Shown here in pieces: positions 1,929 to 62,393 of a DNA stretch of 64,000 bases. Source of the DNA: Shigella phage Sf20; the sequence record MF327006. One strand, 5' to 3'. Positions within the stretch are counted from its first letter, which is position 1. Each line of letters opens with the position of its first letter. The position numbers were made by a program, and so were the translations under genes. The notes beneath the pieces were generated by a model. That model ran no database searches. It was not told the DNA's origin and saw nothing but the letters and a program-made list of their open reading frames with translations.

Positions 1929-3728
1929 ATGCTAATGTTTAATAACTCCGTTAAATGGTTTACCGGAATTGTAGAAAACCGGGAAGACCCATTAATGCTG
2001 GGGCGTGTTCAGGTTAGGATTCATGGTATACATCCCTCGCTATCCGCACACGGTGACATTCAAGGTCTTCCAACCGAAGATCTATTATGGATTACGCCAG
2101 TACAAGATATTACAAGCGCGGCGATCTCCGGTATAGGTCAAAGCCCTACTGGTATTGTTGAAGGTTCAATGGTATTTGGTTTGGCTTTAGATGAACGTTA
2201 TTTAAACTGCGTTATTCTTGGTACTATTGCCGGACAATATACAGAGAAACCACTCACTACAGAGGGTTTTTGCGACCCTTCTGGTGCATATCCTCGTTAT
2301 ATTGGTAATGATGTTAATATTCTTGCTCGTGGCGGTATTAACCCGGAAACCGGACAAACAACAAAACCTGATAGTGTCTATATTCGAGATGAAAACACTG
2401 GAGTTGCAGTAAATCCAGACGACGAGCCATTAGACCAAATTCCGGTTGATGATAATCCTGATTTTACAATAGAAAAAATGCTGCGGGGCGATGAGGGATA
2501 TCGCGAGAAATGGTATCTTGATTCAGAAGGATATCCGACAATAGGCATCGGGCATTTGATCATTTATAAGAAAACCAGTGATCTTGGTATTATCAATAAT
2601 GAACTTTCTAAGCTGGTAGGGCGTGAAGTTACAAACGGAAGACTTACCGCCGAAGAAGTTAGTAAAGTATTTGCCGACGATATAGAAAAGACTCGTCGTG
2701 ATATGCGCAAACATCCACGAATTGCACCTGTCTATAATAAATGTAATGCCTCTCGTCGTATGGCATTAGAAAATATGGCGTTTCAAATGGGTGTTGGTGG
2801 ATTGGGTAAATTTAAGAATAGTCTTGCTGCGATGTTAGCGGAAGAATGGAAACAAGCCTATGATGGATTACGTCAATCGGTATGGGCTAACCAAACTCCA
2901 GGACGCTCCAGTCGTGTTTCTAAAATTATTTTAACTGGTAACTTAGAATCATATGGCGTAATTGCTCCAAAGAAAGAGGAATCAATTTCTGATGATCCGC
3001 GAGCACGTTTAAGAAATGCCCGTATTGCTGCCTATAAGACGCAGAGAGCAGAAGAAGACCCAGAAGCACCGTTTACCCCACAAGACACACGAATCATGTT
3101 TAAAGAGCCTAAGAGTTCGTATTCTGCGAGGTATCCTTATAACCATGTATACGAGTCAGAGAGCGGTCATATTATCGAGATTGATGATACTCCTTCTCAT
3201 GAGCGATATCATCGTAAACATCCTTCTGGTACATTTGAAGAAACCAGACCGGACGGAACGAGGGTAGAAAAGATTGAAGGCGATGATTATCTGATCGTTA
3301 AACAAGGCCGGAAAGTAAACGTCAAGGGTAATTTGCAAGTTGTTGTTGAAGGTGACGCGCAAGTTTATTATATGGGTAATGTGATGCAAACCGTTGATGG
3401 TAACGTCACTGAATTTATTCGTGGCAATGTTAATCAGACCGTTGAAGGTACTGCTAACATGCATGTTGTAGGTGATGTTACCGCTCAGCTTGACGCTAAT
3501 TTAACGGCTAATGTCAAGGGTAATGCTGAATTAATGATCGAGGGTAACACTACCGAAACAATTAAAGGTAACTATGATTTAACCGTTGAGGGTAATTTTA
3601 ATATGACCGTCAATGGCACTAAATCAGACCAGGTTAATGGTGACTGGTCCCGTAATTGTGGTGCAAGCGTTAAAGATATTGCATCTGGTACAGTTAAAAT
3701 TGATGGTAGCCGTATTGATCTTGGGTGA
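1929..3728 (+). CDS. 5: baseplate central spike / tail lysozyme gp5, 599 aa
   Basis: Lysozyme-like segment YLDSEGYPTIGIGHL and C-terminal VxGxxx beta-helix repeats (GNVNQTVEGTANMHVVGDV...). Confidence 0.9.
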   Translation: MLMFNNSVKWFTGIVENREDPLMLGRVQVRIHGIHPSLSAHGDIQGLPTEDLLWITPVQDITSAAISGIGQSPTGIVEGSMVFGLALDERYLNCVILGTIAGQYTEKPLTTEGFCDPSGAYPRYIGNDVNILARGGINPETGQTTKPDSVYIRDENTGVAVNPDDEPLDQIPVDDNPDFTIEKMLRGDEGYREKWYLDSEGYPTIGIGHLIIYKKTSDLGIINNELSKLVGREVTNGRLTAEEVSKVFADDIEKTRRDMRKHPRIAPVYNKCNASRRMALENMAFQMGVGGLGKFKNSLAAMLAEEWKQAYDGLRQSVWANQTPGRSSRVSKIILTGNLESYGVIAPKKEESISDDPRARLRNARIAAYKTQRAEEDPEAPFTPQDTRIMFKEPKSSYSARYPYNHVYESESGHIIEIDDTPSHERYHRKHPSGTFEETRPDGTRVEKIEGDDYLIVKQGRKVNVKGNLQVVVEGDAQVYYMGNVMQTVDGNVTEFIRGNVNQTVEGTANMHVVGDVTAQLDANLTANVKGNAELMIEGNTTETIKGNYDLTVEGNFNMTVNGTKSDQVNGDWSRNCGASVKDIASGTVKIDGSRIDLG

Positions 3729-3736
3729 GGTAACTA

Positions 3737-4303
3737 ATGGTTGAAATTCTTCCGATGAGTTCAAAATTGGAGGATATCAGCGAGCGAGAAATCTTTGAGG
3801 TGGTGTTCTCTTATAAAGCAACGCCACCGGATGCAAATACCACATACACGATTAAAGAGTTTAAGATCAGCGAGTATCGCCCTAATAAGGGCGTTACCGT
3901 TGAAGAAACTAAAATATCTGGTGAGTATCGGGATAGTTTTTCGCTTGGCGCGGATTCTCTTAAATATATAACGAAAGATAGAATTAAAAAATCTGCCGGA
4001 AGTTTTGATGATTTACCAGATCCAACTACCGCAGATCTATATTATTTTAACGCTCCTACACGTCTACAGGAGGTTTATACTTATAAAGTCACCCTAACCT
4101 ATATCCAATCTGTTTCAGAGTCTTCTGGTGGTTCTGGTGAAGGAAATAGTGGTGGTTCCAATAGCCGAGAGGGTGCTGGTGAAACTAATCCGCCTCCGGT
4201 AGTAACCGAACACACAATAGAGAAAGTTTATACTCAAACCGTTTTTGGAAATTGGGATGTGTGGGCGCAGCAACTAAGAGATTATGTACATAGGGGTGTT
4301 TAA
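3737..4303 (+). CDS. conserved hypothetical protein in gp5.1 position, 188 aa
   Basis: ORF with RBS GAGG between gene 5 and the PAAR gene; Gly/Ser-rich segment. Confidence 0.5.
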
Positions 4304-47830: not shown

Positions 47831-48308
47831 CTAAATCATTGCAATATTTTAGTGCCTTAGTTTGAAATTCTGCGCTGTTAAGTTCTTCATAACGGTCATA
47901 ATCACCGTTTAATGCTGCCTTTCTTGCTTCTTGCTCTATCTGCATGTCAGACATGATAATACAGCGATCCCGTGCTTTCATCTTCTCAAGTTGTATAGAC
48001 TCTTCTTTCTGCTTGCGCAATTCTTCTTGACGCTTCTTTTCTTCTTGTGCTTTCTCTTCCCGCGCTTCTTTGATTGCATCCTTGAACATCTGCGTTTGTG
48101 GTGCTAAACCAACTTTAACGCGATCCACGTCTCGACGTTCCATTTTAGAAATAAAGCACGATTCGATCTGATCATCACTTGCATATGCTGCTTTACATTC
48201 ACGAAGCAAGAAAACCGGATCTGATTTAGCATTCATCATAGCTTCCATGTTGGCACAACCAGTAAGCATGAATGCAGCCGCAAGACCAATCAGTTTAATC
48301 ATTTTCAT
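47823..48308 (-). CDS. putative lipoprotein, 161 aa
   Basis: Signal peptide with lipobox (AAFMLTGC); Lys/Glu-rich coiled region; RBS GAGGTGA. Confidence 0.55.
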   Translation of the reverse strand: MKMIKLIGLAAAFMLTGCANMEAMMNAKSDPVFLLRECKAAYASDDQIESCFISKMERRDVDRVKVGLAPQTQMFKDAIKEAREEKAQEEKKRQEELRKQKEESIQLEKMKARDRCIIMSDMQIEQEARKAALNGDYDRYEELNSAEFQTKALKYCNDLAK

Positions 48309-49129
48309 TTAGTCACCTCACCGAAAATTGTAAATTGTCTACGATTCTCATCGCCGAAAGATTCTACTACGTCGTTTACCTTGACGCAAGTCCCGCGCGG
48401 TAAAATTACTTCACATTCGCAAGGGTTCCATGCAATTGACCCAACAACAAAACCTTTATGATCTTTTACGTCAATTACCCATGATACATTACAAGAATGT
48501 TGCATCTTTCCGGTCATTGATTCATATCGATTCTCACAATAAAGGCTAGTGCTGTTTGATAGCCATCCTCCAAAGATGATCGGTGTCATGCTGGTCGATA
48601 CAAAGTTTTTAAAGGTAAACTCCTTATCTTCAATGATGCGCTCTATTGTCTGAATGTCAAGATGTTGACCGCGATAAAGAGTACCGTTTAACTTTTCGGT
48701 TTTATCCATGACACAATCCATCAAATCAACAATCTCTGATATCTCATCGGTCATGTCTTCTTCCCCTAAGAGAGCACCATTTACCCATTCGTATTGCTCA
48801 GACACATAATCACATATTGCATTATATTCTGCTGGGGTTATGTTGTTATGTTTGTAATGTTTGAATACATTATCTCCAAAGTCTTCGGAGTGTACTTCAT
48901 ACATCACATTAATGATTTTCTTGACAAATCCATAATCTTGTGTCTCACGCTCAAGGAAGCGGATAACCTTCACATAATCATCAAAGTTAATCTGATCGCT
49001 GATCATCTCAGTGATCATGTAACCATTAATCCCCTCAATGTCATATGTTTCGATGTAATTATCCATACGTTCCATCATTGATTCGCGTGATTCTTCTGAA
49101 AGACGAAAATCCTGTAATTTCTTGAACAT
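48305..49129 (-). CDS. Alt-like mono-ADP-ribosyltransferase paralog, 274 aa
   Basis: R-S-E catalytic triad signature: LYRGQ, FVSTS, ECEVILP. Confidence 0.6.
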   Translation of the reverse strand: MFKKLQDFRLSEESRESMMERMDNYIETYDIEGINGYMITEMISDQINFDDYVKVIRFLERETQDYGFVKKIINVMYEVHSEDFGDNVFKHYKHNNITPAEYNAICDYVSEQYEWVNGALLGEEDMTDEISEIVDLMDCVMDKTEKLNGTLYRGQHLDIQTIERIIEDKEFTFKNFVSTSMTPIIFGGWLSNSTSLYCENRYESMTGKMQHSCNVSWVIDVKDHKGFVVGSIAWNPCECEVILPRGTCVKVNDVVESFGDENRRQFTIFGEVTK

Positions 49130-49207: not shown

Positions 49208-51333
49208 TTACATTTTAAATTTATCTGGCATTGCGTCTACAGATACCAGGTCAGCGATAAGCTGACGTAGAGTTGCCTTATCTGCTTTCTTACGTTCGGT
49301 TTTAGCTTCGCTAATGAAGCTGGAGAAAGACAGGTCAGAAGCAGGTTTAACAACACCTTCACGGATGAATGCATCACCGTCCGCGATCATCTCGCCAGAT
49401 TCTTGTAATGCTGCCAGTTCATTTTTGTTCATAATATGTGCCTCAATGTAATAAGTTTCTTGTGAATCCGTCGATGCCGTAGCACGAGTTACCGTATCAA
49501 AGGATAACACAACACCGCGAGGAAGTAAAATCTCGCATTCTTTGTAAGCAAATGCTTTGTTACCTACTGGCAAGACAGGGATGTTTTCCGCGCCAGCAAT
49601 GGAGAAAGCAACATTAGCGCCACCTTCACCGCGAGAGCCAGCCATAGAATCAACACCAGCAACGGCACTAGCCACGTTTGCATTCCAGCCGCCAAAAATT
49701 CACCGCGAGAGCCAGCCATAGAATCAACACCAGCAACGGCACTAGCCACGTTTGCATTCCAGCCGCCAAAAATGTTAGGTGCAAGGGAAGTGCTCACATA
49801 GTTTTTAAAGTAAAACGCTTTTTGCTTACGTGCAGTTTCCCACATTTGCGACCGGAAGTCCATACCACGATACAGAATAGTACCCGGATCAAGTTTAACA
49901 CCATAGTTAGAGAAGGCATTATCCAGTGCATCGCACATCTTGACCAATTCTTCTGGATCTGCGATTCCCTCAAACTCTTCCAGCTTACGATCAGTTAGGA
50001 AGTTGTTCATATTGATGTATGCTGCATCGGCATATTCGCTCAACACAAAACCTTCCGCGCCTGGCAGATCAAGATCAATATCTGCCATCATTTCACCCAT
50101 GTTGCTAGCAATTGCTTCAAACATACCGGAGGCAACATTACGTAGGGCATCGGTTTTAATCTGGGTGATATGACTACGCAGCATTTCAGCTTTTACATCT
50201 GCTGGCATAGACTGGTCTACTCGATCCATTGCCAAGGCGGTGATCTTGTTTTCGAATACTTCCTCGCTCATGATTTCTTTTAAGCGTTTGACCGAGGCTG
50301 CGATAACTTCCGCAGACAATGGGTCATATTGATCCTGAACTTTTACCAGTTCGCTTACTGCGTATTTTGCATCGGCTTCGCTTTCAAAAATAGTACGCAT
50401 GAAACCATAGCGAGTGATAATATCACTTGTCCAGTCATTCAGAGAACGGGCGGTTGAACGTTCTAAGGCTTGACGGTCAATCAGAGTATTAAACTGTTTC
50501 TTAGGTTCTGCTTCGGTGATATCTTCTTCCGGTTTAAGATTAATTTTTTCTGGATGATTCACATAGTCGCTGTTATAGGTCGCTTGAGTTTTCAGCATTT
50601 CTTCTTTAGTCAAACGAGATTTAGCCGCTACGCGTTGTTCTGCTTCCGCGTTTCGTTCTTCTTCTGACACAAGACTAGCCGCATACGCCTCATCTTTAGT
50701 CAGAGATTCACCAGTAGCCTTAGATACCCAGCGATCACCTAAATCACTTTCTACTTTAGTGAACAAGGATTCATCAAGTTTAATCCCTTTAATCTTATCA
50801 ATCGCCATCCCGCGACGCTTGACAACAACTAAAGCGATCTTTTTGCTGGTCATTACTTCCTGCTGGAATACTTCAAACTTCGGTGTACGACGCACCAAAC
50901 GCTCTATAACGCGCTTAACCAGTTCGGTCTTACCTTTCATGCGGGATACGTTAAAACGGAACATAACAGCGTCTAATTGAGCTTTACGGGCTGTTTCCAT
51001 AACCACATCAAAAGCACTTGCCATAACTGCAATCGGGTTATCGCCTAGACCATTTTTAAGCTGTATAATACGACCGCTTTTGTTCATTTCGCACAGTACA
51101 ACATGTGCGGTCTTGTCACCCATACGAATGATTTTAGGTGTTTTGTTGGTGAAGTTGCAAAGACGGACAATCACATCTTTATCGCGTGTCTGTACTGCAA
51201 AAAGCTGTTTAGGATTCTGCTTAGGCTTTAAGCACTGTACAGGAGCAATACTGCCAAAGTTTTCTTCCTCTTCCGTCAACAGCCATTTCTCGAAAGATTC
51301 AATCATTAGATCGTCGATTTCTAAGTTAAACAT
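49208..51333 (-). pseudogene. alt: alt (ADP-ribosyltransferase) disrupted by 74-bp tandem duplication frameshift
   Basis: 589-aa ORF (49564-51333) carries LYRG and YVSTS; 155-aa ORF (49208-49675) carries the ExE motif KECEIL; both encode ASAVAGVDSMAGSRGE from the duplicated segment; removing one copy gives a single ORF of about 683 aa (T4 Alt is about 682 aa). Confidence 0.75.
49625..49772. repeat. perfect tandem direct duplication, 2 x 74 bp
   Basis: 49625-49698 is identical to 49699-49772 (TTCACCGCGAGAGCCAGCCATAGAATCAACACCAGCAACGGCACTAGCCACGTTTGCATTCCAGCCGCCAAAAA). Confidence 0.9.
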
Positions 51334-51686: not shown

Positions 51687-52205
51687 TTAGTTATTTTTTA
51701 ATTGTTCATCTTGCAATAATGCAATCACATGCTGGCGATGTTCTTCCGATTGAGGTACACCGAAAAAGTTTGTTTTGTAGAAATACTCTAATCGGTCTTC
51801 TCGTGTGCTCTCTTCCATCATGATCGCGGGTAGTCCGAGATTTCGGAAACGTCGCTTTTCTGCTGGCGTAAAATCACTGTAATACAACATAGAATCATCA
51901 TTACAAGCAATGCTAAACTCATCCTTCATAAAGGAGAATATTGCGTTTAAACGCTGTTTACCGTCCACGATTTCGATCTCATAGCGAGAGCCATCATCAA
52001 TCTTAGCCATTGCGATAGCACCAACCGGAAAATCATTAATCAGGTTTTCAATAAACATACGTTTGTTTTCGGTGTCCCATACTAAAGGACGCTGATAATC
52101 TGGGTTCATGTTGATATAGCCATCTTCTAACCATGCTTCGTAAACAGAGATAACAAAGTTTTTAGTATTGGTATAGTAGCGGCGTTTAGGCGTTAAACGG
52201 TTCAT
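51687..52205 (-). CDS. DUF262 / ParB-like nuclease-domain protein, 172 aa
   Basis: Motifs DYQRPLVW and DGKQRL; ATG 52205 one nt after upstream stop, RBS AGGAG. Confidence 0.55.
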   Translation of the reverse strand: MNRLTPKRRYYTNTKNFVISVYEAWLEDGYINMNPDYQRPLVWDTENKRMFIENLINDFPVGAIAMAKIDDGSRYEIEIVDGKQRLNAIFSFMKDEFSIACNDDSMLYYSDFTPAEKRRFRNLGLPAIMMEESTREDRLEYFYKTNFFGVPQSEEHRQHVIALLQDEQLKNN

Positions 52206-52206
52206 G

Positions 52207-52536
52207 TTATAGTCTCCTGAATGGGTCATCACGTAAATCAATATCTTTTAAGAACTCATCCCATGAATGGCGGATATTGTTCTTAATTCTCCAGATGAGC
52301 GCAGGGATTGAACGCTCTCCCATCTGGAAGTATGGATCATATGATCCGTATGCCCAATATGCTACTACAATTCCACAATCAGAGCAATAGTATTCTATTT
52401 CACTTGCTGGCGACCAAAGTCCATCAATATGATCGGTGATCTTGCTTTCGATGTTATGGCTATGACAATCAGGGCAACGGATGCAATGACCTTGTTTATC
52501 GTAATTTGACGTTAGCGAATACTTAAACAATCTCAT
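52207..52536 (-). CDS. zinc-ribbon protein, 109 aa
   Basis: Cys clusters CIRCPDC and CSDCG; start overlaps upstream stop (TAATG). Confidence 0.55.
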   Translation of the reverse strand: MRLFKYSLTSNYDKQGHCIRCPDCHSHNIESKITDHIDGLWSPASEIEYYCSDCGIVVAYWAYGSYDPYFQMGERSIPALIWRIKNNIRHSWDEFLKDIDLRDDPFRRL

Positions 52537-53252
52537 TATAGATCCTTATTTGCTTCAAATACTGCCTTTGCGAATCCTCGCGGGGTAAGTGACCTTATAG
52601 TCTTTGTTTTCGTTCCTTTCCCGCCTAGCTTAGAATGCTGTTTACTGTACCCTTTATTAATCTGCAACGGTTTCTTTTCTGGCATTATAAAGCCTTGTCC
52701 GGTCCATAAGCAAGTCTTTTTTGGGTACATATCACGGGCGGCAATATACTCAGGAAACGTAGGATGCTTATCATCTTCCGGCAAATAACCGCCATATTCC
52801 CACGGATGGAACATATAATCAGGCTTACGCCACATGCTAGAGATAACGCTTACAGGATTCTCTATCATGTAGGGAACTCCTAGCCATTCACCCAAATAAG
52901 CGGTTATTTTAGCTGCCCGTACATCATGAACTTGAATCAATGGTCCTTGTTCTCGTTTCTTTCGTTCAAAGTGCGCAGCGCCACTAACAGCTAAATTGGT
53001 GCACGGTGGGAATGCAAAGATAATATCCGGTTTCCCCCATTCAAGGTCCATTGCTCTTTCCAGCCAGTTCAAATCAATCCATGTGTTTACATAGGTAATG
53101 TTTGGATGTTCAAATCTGGTATTATACTTTTTGTATGTGCCGTGGTCGCCATCATCAGCATTAAAGCAGATCACCTTATGACCTGCTTTAGCCCATTCTA
53201 GCCCCATTATCCCCGATCCGTCAAAGTTACAGAATATTAATTTTTGTTTCAT
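52536..53252 (-). CDS. C5-cytosine methyltransferase-like protein lacking a target-recognition domain, 238 aa
   Basis: Motif I FCNFDGSG, FNADD, motif IV FPPCTNLAVSGA (PC), motif VI MIENPV; RBS AAAGGGG. Confidence 0.5.
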   Translation of the reverse strand: MKQKLIFCNFDGSGIMGLEWAKAGHKVICFNADDGDHGTYKKYNTRFEHPNITYVNTWIDLNWLERAMDLEWGKPDIIFAFPPCTNLAVSGAAHFERKKREQGPLIQVHDVRAAKITAYLGEWLGVPYMIENPVSVISSMWRKPDYMFHPWEYGGYLPEDDKHPTFPEYIAARDMYPKKTCLWTGQGFIMPEKKPLQINKGYSKQHSKLGGKGTKTKTIRSLTPRGFAKAVFEANKDL

Positions 53253-59728: not shown

Positions 59729-60202
59729 TTACTCCTTATTTTCGCGCTCGTACTTTTCGAAATAAAATTCTACTGGCTGGTCATTAATTGACAGCAATCC
59801 AAAGCGTTTAGCCGCTCGCAATCCCATATTGCGCTGAATGTACTTCTGGAAGTTCTCGCGTATACACTTACGCCAGTATTCTAAGCCCATACAGCTTTTA
59901 TAAAGATTGCATTGCACACACGCCGGATTCATGTTATCAAGTATATCATGTTCCGGTTTATGCATTCCTACAACCTTATACTTCCACGATCCATCATCAT
60001 TACGGGCAATTCGTCCATTTTCATCATAGACTACCTTTGAGCGTCGCAATACTGGTTTGATGTGGTCTGCGTGCCAGCGATCCCCTAGTTCCTCGCCACA
60101 ATAGGCACAACGTCCACCATATTTCATTTTCAGGATCTGTCGTTGCTCTTTCTTTGACAATTTTTTAGGTTTAGGGGCTTTCGCCCCTTCATTATCACAC
60201 AT
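59729..60202 (-). CDS. HNH endonuclease, 157 aa
   Basis: HNH signature CAYCG ... HADHIKP ... N ... CVQCN; RBS AAGAGGT. Confidence 0.65.
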   Translation of the reverse strand: MCDNEGAKAPKPKKLSKKEQRQILKMKYGGRCAYCGEELGDRWHADHIKPVLRRSKVVYDENGRIARNDDGSWKYKVVGMHKPEHDILDNMNPACVQCNLYKSCMGLEYWRKCIRENFQKYIQRNMGLRAAKRFGLLSINDQPVEFYFEKYERENKE

Positions 60203-61691
60203 CGAATACCTCTTTTACTGTATTTGCAGTGGTCTTGTCGTAGCGAATACGTTTGATGATTGGGAGAAATAAAGAGAACTCCGGTTCATCTTCTTTACGT
60301 GATTTGCTGCGAATGTACCCGTTGCATGTCATCTCAATGACTTTTCCAATCAGGTTATGACGGTCAGCCCATAACATTTCTCGGTCGAGTTCATTTCGAC
60401 GATCGAACGGAATTACACGTTCAGTACCATCATCACCTTTTTCGGTTGTAGTGTCGGTTAATCCCGATCCGGTGTTAGTCATCATTCGTCCGCACGCACT
60501 ACGGACAGTAAAACCGCCTACCTTATTGGGGTCTTTACTATGCGGATATACATCAACAATTTCCGCGTCGAAGTCAATCACTTCTTTAAATTTAACCTGA
60601 TCTTTACTACGGCGATCTTCAAATACACCATGTAAATTTTTAAGGATAATACCTTCTAAGCCCATGTTTACATAGCGATGATATACTTCGCGAGCTTCAT
60701 CTATATTGTTAACTACAGTGTTTTCGATTATCTGAACACGAGGATCGTTAAGTTCTTCAACAATCTGTTTTAGTTCTTCGAATCGATCTTTATATTGCTT
60801 CGTTGCTTTCTCGTTTCCGTAATACACATCACGGTCGATAACATCCCAGACAGTGTAAACAATACATTGGGCTTCTTCTTTTGGAATAGTTCCTTTCAGT
60901 GATTTGTTGAGGATACCATTTCCGGTCTGACGATCTGCAACAACGGATTCTTTTACTGCTTCCGCTACTGGCGTTAATGGCATTTCCTCTTCTTCAAATA
61001 TCCATGACAGAGTACCATCATAAACGCTTTCAACGAAGTTCTGCGCTGGTGTTTGCGAAAGGGTAGGCATATATACCAATTCCCCATCTAGAACAATTCC
61101 ACGGCCTCGTAGACGCTCTAGAACAGCAAACAAATCATCAAGTCCCTGATAGGTATTACCTGAACGGGTATAGATTGCTAATGTTTCCCCGTCAATATCA
61201 GCCATCCCACGAGCGCCATCGCTTTTAAGTTGTGCATACGCCGGATACTTGATATTAGCAATAGTCTTATCAGAACATGACGATGCAAGGTGGCACGGTT
61301 GCTGAGGGATCAGTTTCTTCCATACCTTGTTTGCAGTGGTAGCGGAACAACCACATTCCAGATCACGATTCAGGACCATCATTGCAACTTTAGCATCATC
61401 CTCTGACAAGCAAGTCAGAGTATCGGTAACTAGCTGTAATGCTGCATTACCAGTTACTTGACGCGTGGCAAGTTTATTTTTAAAGACCTGTAATGCACCG
61501 GATAAAGACAATACAGACGAATAGCGAGATGGTTTATCGTATTTCTTTACGCCAAACGTAACCTGTTTGCAATATGCCAGATAAAAGCATTCTTTCAGCG
61601 TTTCATTGCTTGCTGATTCTTTCAGAATCTTTTCTTTCAGCGATGTTTTGTCTGTTGCTGCAAGCTGATTAATGATATTAAGAATTGACAT
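60195..61691 (-). CDS. 30: ATP-dependent DNA ligase gp30, 498 aa
   Basis: Adenylation motif KSDGAR; N-terminus SILNIINQLA resembles remembered T4 ligase N-terminus; ORF-track GTG extension trimmed. Confidence 0.9.
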   Translation of the reverse strand: MSILNIINQLAATDKTSLKEKILKESASNETLKECFYLAYCKQVTFGVKKYDKPSRYSSVLSLSGALQVFKNKLATRQVTGNAALQLVTDTLTCLSEDDAKVAMMVLNRDLECGCSATTANKVWKKLIPQQPCHLASSCSDKTIANIKYPAYAQLKSDGARGMADIDGETLAIYTRSGNTYQGLDDLFAVLERLRGRGIVLDGELVYMPTLSQTPAQNFVESVYDGTLSWIFEEEEMPLTPVAEAVKESVVADRQTGNGILNKSLKGTIPKEEAQCIVYTVWDVIDRDVYYGNEKATKQYKDRFEELKQIVEELNDPRVQIIENTVVNNIDEAREVYHRYVNMGLEGIILKNLHGVFEDRRSKDQVKFKEVIDFDAEIVDVYPHSKDPNKVGGFTVRSACGRMMTNTGSGLTDTTTEKGDDGTERVIPFDRRNELDREMLWADRHNLIGKVIEMTCNGYIRSKSRKEDEPEFSLFLPIIKRIRYDKTTANTVKEVFDV

Positions 61692-62157
61692 TTTCACCTC
61701 GTTTTGTTAAACGTTCACGAATATCATTGAGGATACTACAAAATTCCGATTCAGTCAATATAGTCTTTAACGGATCAGTTCCACCTATACTATGACGTAA
61801 TTTCTTATTTCCGGTAGAGAGTAATGCTTTACAAAATTCTGGGTTATTCCGTGCCATCGTAACAAATGCCAGATGTACCAGTCTGTAATAATGCTCACTC
61901 ATTCGATGAATAGGGCGACCCTGAAAATATAACATGTGATTCTCAATCTTTTCAGTTCTTCCGGTTCTTTTTGCTTTGCCACCGTGCATCAAAAAGATTT
62001 CTCTTTGTCTCTGAGGGTTCTTAAATCTTAGCCCCTGTAAAAATCCTTCTGTGCTGTTAATATCGCAACCAAATAGACGGAATGGTCTTTTATTGAAATT
62101 ACTCAATTCACCCGATGGATAAGGTCCACCCGCATAGATATCAATTTCAGAAGTCAT
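61678..62157 (-). CDS. NADAR (YbiA-like) domain protein, 159 aa
   Basis: IDIYAGGPYPSGELSNF ... STEGFLQGLRF ... LLSTGNKKL resemble NADAR/YbiA conserved segments. Confidence 0.55.
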   Translation of the reverse strand: MTSEIDIYAGGPYPSGELSNFNKRPFRLFGCDINSTEGFLQGLRFKNPQRQREIFLMHGGKAKRTGRTEKIENHMLYFQGRPIHRMSEHYYRLVHLAFVTMARNNPEFCKALLSTGNKKLRHSIGGTDPLKTILTESEFCSILNDIRERLTKRGENVNS

Positions 62158-62311
62158 TGAAACTAATCTCGCTAATCAGAGAGAACGGATCATAATCGTC
62201 ATTAGGAATATCGATAGTAATCGAATGAGGATTTACCCATACACCAAACTGGTCTTCTTCGGTGAATACTTCGGTATGGATTTCGTGGATGTTTACATTC
62301 ATAGTTTTCAT
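62147..62311 (-). CDS. small hypothetical protein, 54 aa
   Basis: ATG 62311 with RBS AAGGA; 3-prime end overlaps NADAR start by 11 nt; below ORF-track size cutoff. Confidence 0.4.
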   Translation of the reverse strand: MKTMNVNIHEIHTEVFTEEDQFGVWVNPHSITIDIPNDDYDPFSLISEISFNDF

Positions 62312-62393
62312 AATAAAATTCCTTAATAATCAATAACTTACAAAATCATATAGCCAAAATATAGGCGGGATTATTTCCCGCCGTTTAAAATCA

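Follow-up and report, generated by a model that had tools for sequence, protein, structure and literature searches.

The 30.3 locus and its surroundings

The window considered here, a stretch of 64,000 nucleotides from Shigella phage Sf20 (sequence record MF327006), comes from a Krischvirus, an RB49/JSE-like coliphage of the T4 type, and the 2 kb that hold the gene of interest are 98.4-98.8% identical in nucleotide sequence to 59 Krischvirus genomes. Nested between a 54-aa ORF and the DNA ligase gene, with gp31 and an HNH endonuclease also among its neighbors, is a reading frame for a protein of 159 residues (Table 1). This frame is clearly a coding gene, not a chance ORF. Pfam PF08010 (Phage_30_3) matches the protein with E = 6.5e-38 and 130.1 bits (cut-off 36), residues 13-148 lying on positions 2-138 of the 138-position profile so that the full domain is present, and phrog_652 matches with E = 9e-45; tblastn with the 159-aa query finds 1509 phage records, 1501 of them with at least 80% coverage of the protein, from phages of Escherichia, Klebsiella, Aeromonas, Acinetobacter, Vibrio, and other hosts; and 967 cluster representatives (50% identity) match at E <= 1e-3. 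NCBIfam holds no model for this protein, for the 54-aa ORF upstream, or for the second ADP-ribosyltransferase discussed below.

Table 1. Features of the window at and around the 30.3 locus
Feature	Position	Strand	Description
Gene assigned as adfN / gene 30.3 ortholog	61678..62157	(-)	159 aa, ATG to TAA; phage-type NADAR, predicted core YbiA fold, without N-terminal extension
Codon Glu37	62047..62049	(-)	Aligned with catalytic E36 of T4 AdfN, E43 of Phytophthora NADAR, and E88 of E. coli C7 DarG1
Codon Arg44	62026..62028	(-)	Position of the phosphate-coordinating Lys (T4 K43, Phytophthora K50, C7 K95); spacing E-x6-K
Codon His122	61792..61794	(-)	Last-strand residue defining phage (gp30.3-type) NADARs; aligned with T4 H123
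C-terminal alpha-helix, about residues 136-158	61681..61752	(-)	Predicted in the AF2 model; intact
Gene 30, ATP-dependent DNA ligase	60195..61691	(-)	Downstream neighbor; Pfam DNA_ligase_A_M, E = 2.8e-22; JSE annotation
14-nt overlap of 30.3 end and ligase ATG	61678..61691	(-)	Sequence ...GAGGTGAAAATGTCAATTCTTAA; JSE starts ligase at the same ATG
54-aa ORF	62147..62311	(-)	Directly upstream; stop overlaps 30.3 start by 11 nt; phrog_15277, E = 3.7e-42
Putative terminator-like hairpin	62364..62382	(-)	GGCGGGAAATAATCCCGCC followed by T-rich tail, after gene 31; from a consensus scan only
274-aa ADP-ribosyltransferase paralog	48305..49129		Pfam ADPrib_exo_Tox, E = 4e-16; YRG / STS / ECE motifs

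The earlier note, made from the sequence alone, had located the gene where T4 has its 30.x ORFs. The location is right but understates the relationship: judged by sequence and gene order, the gene is orthologous to T4 30.3 specifically. BLASTP aligns the protein with T4 gp30.3 (NP_049816, 152 aa) over the full length at 38% identity (E = 6e-30); the annotation of phage JSE already labels the corresponding gene "30.3"; and the order cd-31.1-31-...-30.3-...-30-...-alt is common to the window, JSE, T4, and an Acinetobacter T4-like phage. Outside Krischvirus, the named relative that comes closest, at 48% identity, is that of Acinetobacter phage MD-2021a. An ortholog in an Aeromonas phage adjoins a ribose-phosphate pyrophosphokinase gene. 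The gene is named "hypothetical protein" in all but one of the 59 Krischvirus records and likewise in most of the other matches.

The overlap with the start of DNA ligase that the earlier note had pointed out is present and measures 14 nt. Ligase most likely begins at the ATG at 61691, which is preceded, at a distance of 5 nt, by the Shine-Dalgarno sequence GAGG; were it to begin at the GTG given by the ORF finder, the overlap would be 20 nt instead. Since the neighboring genes overlap likewise, by 11 nt upstream of 30.3 and by 8 nt between ligase and the HNH endonuclease gene downstream of it, the 30.3/ligase overlap is the ordinary tight packing of T4-type early and middle operons and has no special meaning. 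The hairpin that follows gene 31 may mark the upstream limit of a unit composed of the 54-aa ORF, 30.3, 30, and the HNH gene, whereas a promoter scan found nine candidates versus 11.5 expected from shuffled sequence, a yield not above chance.

A NADAR fold with a phage-type active site

The earlier note had called the product a NADAR protein from short motifs, and the motifs, the PF08010 match, and the predicted fold all agree with it: GELSNF occupies residues 16-21 of the translation, STEGF residues 35-39, and LLSTGNKKL residues 112-120. The relation to NADAR proteins of known structure becomes visible only with a family profile and in the structural comparison. Taken singly, the sequence matches the Pfam NADAR model (PF08719) weakly, with E = 0.02 and 15.6 bits where the gathering score is 35.1, and its search of the PDB sequences recovers no NADAR; the DltA match in that search (E = 7e-4) is spurious. 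A profile of 79 family members, in contrast, finds E. coli YbiA (2b3w) with E = 3.7e-4 and, next in rank, the Phytophthora NADAR (8bau), so that profile searches do recover NADAR. The same holds for modeling: a single-sequence AlphaFold model with a pLDDT of 45 was unusable and was discarded, whereas AlphaFold2 supplied with the 79-sequence alignment returned a model with a pLDDT of 95.9 and a pTM of 0.90, in which a five-helix core lies between two small sheets and superposes on solved NADARs, YbiA and the ADP-ribose-bound Phytophthora NADAR being tied as the best structural match. The model thus supports a NADAR-fold enzyme.

The residues that would carry catalysis are retained with one exception. 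The statistics that follow come from an exhaustive search of the representatives, a word-indexed homolog search having returned only seven proteins. Glu37, in the motif STEGFLQ, is Glu in 156 of 162 aligned family rows; Gln41, the conserved Gln, is kept and is nearly invariant across the family; and His122, within KLRHSIG, is His in 155 of the 162 rows and does not vary in two further alignments. This last-strand residue is His in phage NADARs, Glu in the YbiA family, and Asp in the DarG1/BC4488 family (PMC11125620, PMC11543638). The alignment with T4 gp30.3 extends to the last T4 residue, so the C-terminal helix is kept. What the protein does not have is the phosphate-coordinating Lys, which is replaced by Arg44. 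Among the top representatives together with T4, this column holds Lys in 145, Arg in 11, and another residue in 4, with Arg the state of 11 of the 158 representatives, and the ortholog of Acinetobacter phage MD-2021a carries Arg here too. Because Arg occurs in intact orthologs from several lineages, we regard it as a recurrent natural variant that is apparently tolerated. The change is conservative, and it bears on activity, not on family membership.

Probable removal of guanine-ADP-ribose as counter-defense

The statement in the earlier note that NADARs take ADP-ribose off nucleic acids is borne out for their bases by Schuller et al. (Mol Cell 2023; PMC11543638), who reported that NADARs reverse the guanine ADP-ribosylation by DarT1. 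A paper in Toxins in 2024 calls the phage clade "gp30.3 proteins" and found that the tested NADARs, T4's included, hydrolyze guanine- and not thymine-ADP-ribose, T4 gp30.3 doing so in vitro (PMC11125620); in a further Toxins paper, of 2026, the T4 protein is the one chosen to represent the "phage NADAR" type (PMC12945103). Johannesman et al. (bioRxiv 2024; Nat Commun 2025) mapped the DarTG1 resistance of T-even phages to gene 30.3, which was renamed adfN (PMC11257639, PMC11825919), for "anti-DarT factor NADAR," and described its product as a DNA guanine ADP-ribosylglycohydrolase (PMC11825919). T4 AdfN is necessary and sufficient against DarTG1, the purified protein strips ADP-ribose from DarT1-modified DNA, and it does not bind DarT1 stably (PMC11257639, PMC11825919). 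Its E36A and K43A variants are inactive, E36A abolishes the counter-defense, and in the RB69 allele a frameshift that removes the last 15 residues leaves a nonfunctional protein and a DarTG1-sensitive phage (PMC11257639). A role in countering host ADP-ribosylating defenses, which the earlier note had offered as one option, has therefore been demonstrated experimentally for the T4 ortholog against DarTG1 (PMC11825919, PMC11125620), and the plating of a deletion mutant on DarTG-like hosts that it had proposed is essentially the published T4 experiment (PMC11825919).

We consider it quite probable that the Sf20 gene, as the Krischvirus ortholog of T4 30.3 (AdfN), encodes a NADAR N-glycosidase that counters DarTG1 by removing guanine-ADP-ribose. 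A small, single-domain enzyme of the NADAR fold would be produced during infection and would split ADP-ribose from the N2 of guanines in phage DNA; the mark placed by DarT1, the toxin of the host's DarTG1 toxin-antitoxin defense, would be reversed, and phage DNA replication could continue. Such a protein would act as an "orphan antitoxin" whose target is the damaged DNA, without binding to the toxin. Our own analysis contributes the orthology to T4 gp30.3, the NADAR fold, and the conservation of Glu37, Gln41, His122, and the C-terminal helix, while the chemistry and the phenotype, that is, guanine-ADP-ribose hydrolysis, DarTG1 counter-defense, and the lack of stable DarT1 binding, were shown for the T4 protein only (PMC11825919, PMC11125620). 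We infer that this role is also played in vivo by the Krischvirus protein, in which Arg takes the place of the phosphate-binding Lys.

The same fold leaves room for a different substrate, namely low-molecular-weight ADP-ribose derivatives such as host immune signals or toxins, or N-glycosides of the riboflavin pathway as for YbiA. The tie between YbiA and the ADP-ribose-bound Phytophthora protein in the structural comparison fits such a small-molecule hydrolase, as does the pyrophosphokinase gene beside the Aeromonas ortholog, and the comparative-genomics survey of Iyer et al. in 2022 predicted small, diffusible ADP-ribose derivatives, and not macromolecules, as the substrates of most phage NADARs (PMC9503650). 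However, the T4 ortholog acts on guanine-ADP-ribose in DNA both in vitro and in vivo (PMC11257639, PMC11125620), the last-strand residue of the Sf20 protein is of the phage type, not the Glu of YbiA, and the window holds no NAD or riboflavin pathway genes as neighbors of 30.3; we therefore rate this reading as unlikely.

The earlier note had also stressed that the window encodes Alt and a second ADP-ribosyltransferase paralog, and both are there: Alt is recognized by phrog_802 (E = 9e-145), and the intact 274-aa paralog retains the R, STS, and ExE motifs. From their presence the note had suggested a module that writes ADP-ribosylation and possibly erases it; in such a module the NADAR protein would remove the marks that the phage's own transferases place on protein arginine or RNA. 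The product of Alt is protein arginine-ADP-ribose. Arginine-ADP-ribose hydrolysis by a NADAR was not found in the literature examined, and the activities reported there for NADARs are N-glycosidic, on ADP-ribosylated bases (guanine, and cytidine in some families) and on a riboflavin intermediate. NADARs have also been reported to take guanine-ADP-ribose off RNA (PMC12945103), which would suit the module, but the phenotype of the T4 adfN deletion is specific to DarTG1 hosts (PMC11825919). Nor does the map argue for it: 30.3 and alt lie about 10 kb apart, with some 25 small ORFs between them, and because their proximity is T4-type gene order inherited across genera, the suggestion is left unsupported. 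Moreover, alt is frameshifted in the window, whereas 30.3 is intact. In the sequence as recorded, an exact tandem duplication of 74 nt (49625-49698 = 49699-49772) splits the alt frame into ORFs of 589 and 155 aa, with the break between the STS and the catalytic ExE motifs, and removal of one copy restores a 683-aa Alt ORF; in the best-matching Krischvirus relatives listed (58 records matched), about 2226 nt correspond to the 2300-nt alt stretch of the window, and these relatives are therefore without the duplication. We hold the module to be very unlikely.

For the preferred reading, a guanine-ADP-ribose hydrolase directed against DarTG1, the one real doubt concerns how well the Arg form works in vivo. 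Identity to T4 AdfN is only 38%, and the essential Lys is Arg, a replacement for which there is a precedent: the K95R variant of the C7 NADAR (DarG1) hydrolyzes guanine-ADP-ribose in vitro but does not rescue cells from DarT1 toxicity (PMC11543638). In addition, the effect of T4 AdfN is tied to T-even infection, and Krischvirus, according to the taxonomy line of the JSE record, lies outside the subfamily Tevenvirinae. T4 AdfN is fully effective only in T-even infection, where it seems to need a further phage factor (PMC11825919). The preprint suggestion that T4 AdfN needs hydroxymethylcytosine DNA (PMC11257639), which would have set apart a Krischvirus ortholog with cytosine DNA, was dropped because the published version shows that T4-GT7, a phage without DNA modifications, still relies on AdfN (PMC11825919). 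In the literature on Krischvirus or RB49 together with DarTG or DarTG1, we found nothing relevant.

An alternative is that the substitution has weakened or re-specialized the enzyme, which would then give no protection from a C7-type DarTG1; the protein would be a relic, or it would serve against another toxin that ADP-ribosylates guanine or on another substrate. Arg44 occupies the position at which Ala in place of Lys inactivates the T4 protein (PMC11257639), the corresponding Arg mutant of DarG1 fails in vivo (PMC11543638), and Arg is the minority state. Against this stand the charge that Arg retains and the hydrolysis that it supports in vitro in DarG1 (PMC11543638), the retention of all the remaining catalytic positions, and the state of the gene, which is unbroken in essentially every one of the 59 Krischvirus records as well as in the Acinetobacter phage with the same Arg and thus appears to be under selection for function. 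Loss or diversion of this kind strikes us as unlikely. We allow a small chance that the Arg-bearing AdfN branch of Krischvirus and the Acinetobacter phage, outside Tevenvirinae, is a functionally shifted variant, perhaps suited to RNA adducts or to a guanine-ADP-ribosylating toxin other than DarT1. Alternatively, such a variant may be independent of the T-even "potentiating factor" that T4 AdfN needs, in which case a comparison with T4 AdfN could help to pin that factor down.

The identification is correct but not new, since family and function are both published: the recognition of the gp30.3 clade as phage NADARs with a last-strand His is cited in papers from 2023-2024, and the DNA de-ADP-ribosylase role of its T4 member followed in 2024-2025. 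Its practical value lies in annotation, where "hypothetical protein" entries could become AdfN-like NADAR, and the Lys-to-Arg change and the non-Tevenvirinae background may alter efficacy or specificity.

Relation to known NADAR systems

Among characterized NADARs, YbiA (2b3w) shares with the Sf20 protein a bare NADAR core and a similar size and is its best profile match, yet it has Glu in the last strand in place of His122, and its gene lies on the chromosome within an operon under LexA control and encodes a protein with a role as a riboflavin-intermediate N-glycosidase (PMC11125620, PMC11543638). DarG1, the DarTG1 antitoxin of the BC4488 family (Geobacter lovleyi, 8bat; the E. coli C7 NADAR), has a last-strand Asp and an N-terminal extension where the Sf20 protein has His122 and only the core, and the DarT1 gene adjoins it, whereas none lies beside 30.3 in the window. 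Phages that are not T4-like carry their own orphan NADARs against DarTG1, NADAR-Bas32 and NADAR-Bas60, which derive from other branches of the NADAR tree by independent acquisition and group apart from gp30.3; unlike T4 AdfN, they are effective in uninfected cells and also serve unrelated phages, whereas T4 AdfN is unable to replace DarG1 in uninfected cells (PMC11825919).

The closest counterpart is T4 gp30.3/AdfN, which belongs to the same Pfam family (PF08010), occupies the same slot upstream of ligase, consists of the core NADAR domain only, and is of the same size class, with 152 residues versus 159. The differences concern the surroundings and a single active-site position: in T4, 30.1 and 30.2 lie between 30.3 and ligase, whereas in the window 30.3 adjoins ligase directly; the upstream neighbor is unrelated to T4 30.4, BLASTP giving no alignment between the 54-aa ORF product and gp30.4; the Sf20 protein comes from a genus outside Tevenvirinae; and Lys43 of T4 AdfN corresponds to Arg44. 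Both proteins share the Glu, the Gln, the last-strand His, and an intact C-terminal helix.

Disruption of alt by a tandem duplication

In the window sequence, alt is frameshifted by an exact 74-nt tandem duplication, which leaves the STS motif on one side of the split and the catalytic ExE motif (KECEILLPRG) on the other. When one copy is removed in silico, an Alt of 683 aa is recovered. The best Krischvirus relatives among the matches listed lack the duplication, which is either genuine, and the phage an alt-null variant, or an artefact of assembly. The second ADP-ribosyltransferase, which adjoins alt on its downstream side, carries the motifs LYRG, VSTSM and ECEVILPRG.

Features of the alt and 30.3-ligase regions and of the gp30.3 locus of Aeromonas phage AS-sw (L005)
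Feature	Coordinates	Strand	Remarks
Second ADP-ribosyltransferase	48305..49129	-	Intact, 274 aa; Pfam ADPrib_exo_Tox E=4e-16; phrog_15144
alt	49208..51333	-	Whole span, both ORF pieces included
Downstream alt piece	49208..49675	-	155-aa ORF
Upstream alt piece	49564..51333	-	589-aa ORF
74-nt tandem duplication within alt	49625-49772		Two head-to-tail copies, 100% identical
184-aa ORF	51687..52241	-	TTG start; N-terminal domain GmrSD_N/DUF262-type, Pfam PF03235 E=6e-20
DNA methyltransferase gene	52536..53252		Follows the 184-aa ORF
HNH endonuclease gene	59729..60202	-	Pfam HNH E=5e-6; phrog_2118 E=5e-54
54-aa ORF	62147..62311	-	phrog_15277; translational overlap with 30.3 start
AS-sw gp30.3 ortholog	2492-2941		L005
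AS-sw ribose-phosphate pyrophosphokinase gene	3336-4133		L005, after the gp30.3 ortholog

A short GmrSD_N-type ORF

The 184-aa ORF aligns only to positions 1-183 of the 417 in phrog_1583. Since other Krischvirus genomes have the identical arrangement, its shortness is not a lesion of the window.

Comparison with T4 and other settings of gp30.3

The slot held by the second ADP-ribosyltransferase is occupied in T4 by alt.-1, alt.-2 and alt.-3; in the T4 record these three are annotated as what remains of an old, partial duplication of alt. Directly downstream of ligase, whose end it overlaps by 8 nt, lies the HNH gene; T4 has alt.1 at that site, and the HNH gene is therefore probably a mobile homing-type insertion. 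On the other side of 30.3, the position of the 54-aa ORF corresponds to that of T4 30.4; the two are unrelated. In some gp30.3 representatives, of 250-540 aa, the gp30.3 domain forms part of a fusion with other regions, and one such fusion protein contains PF05164. In the T4-like Aeromonas phage AS-sw, what comes after the gp30.3 ortholog is not ligase but, beyond a gap, a gene for ribose-phosphate pyrophosphokinase.
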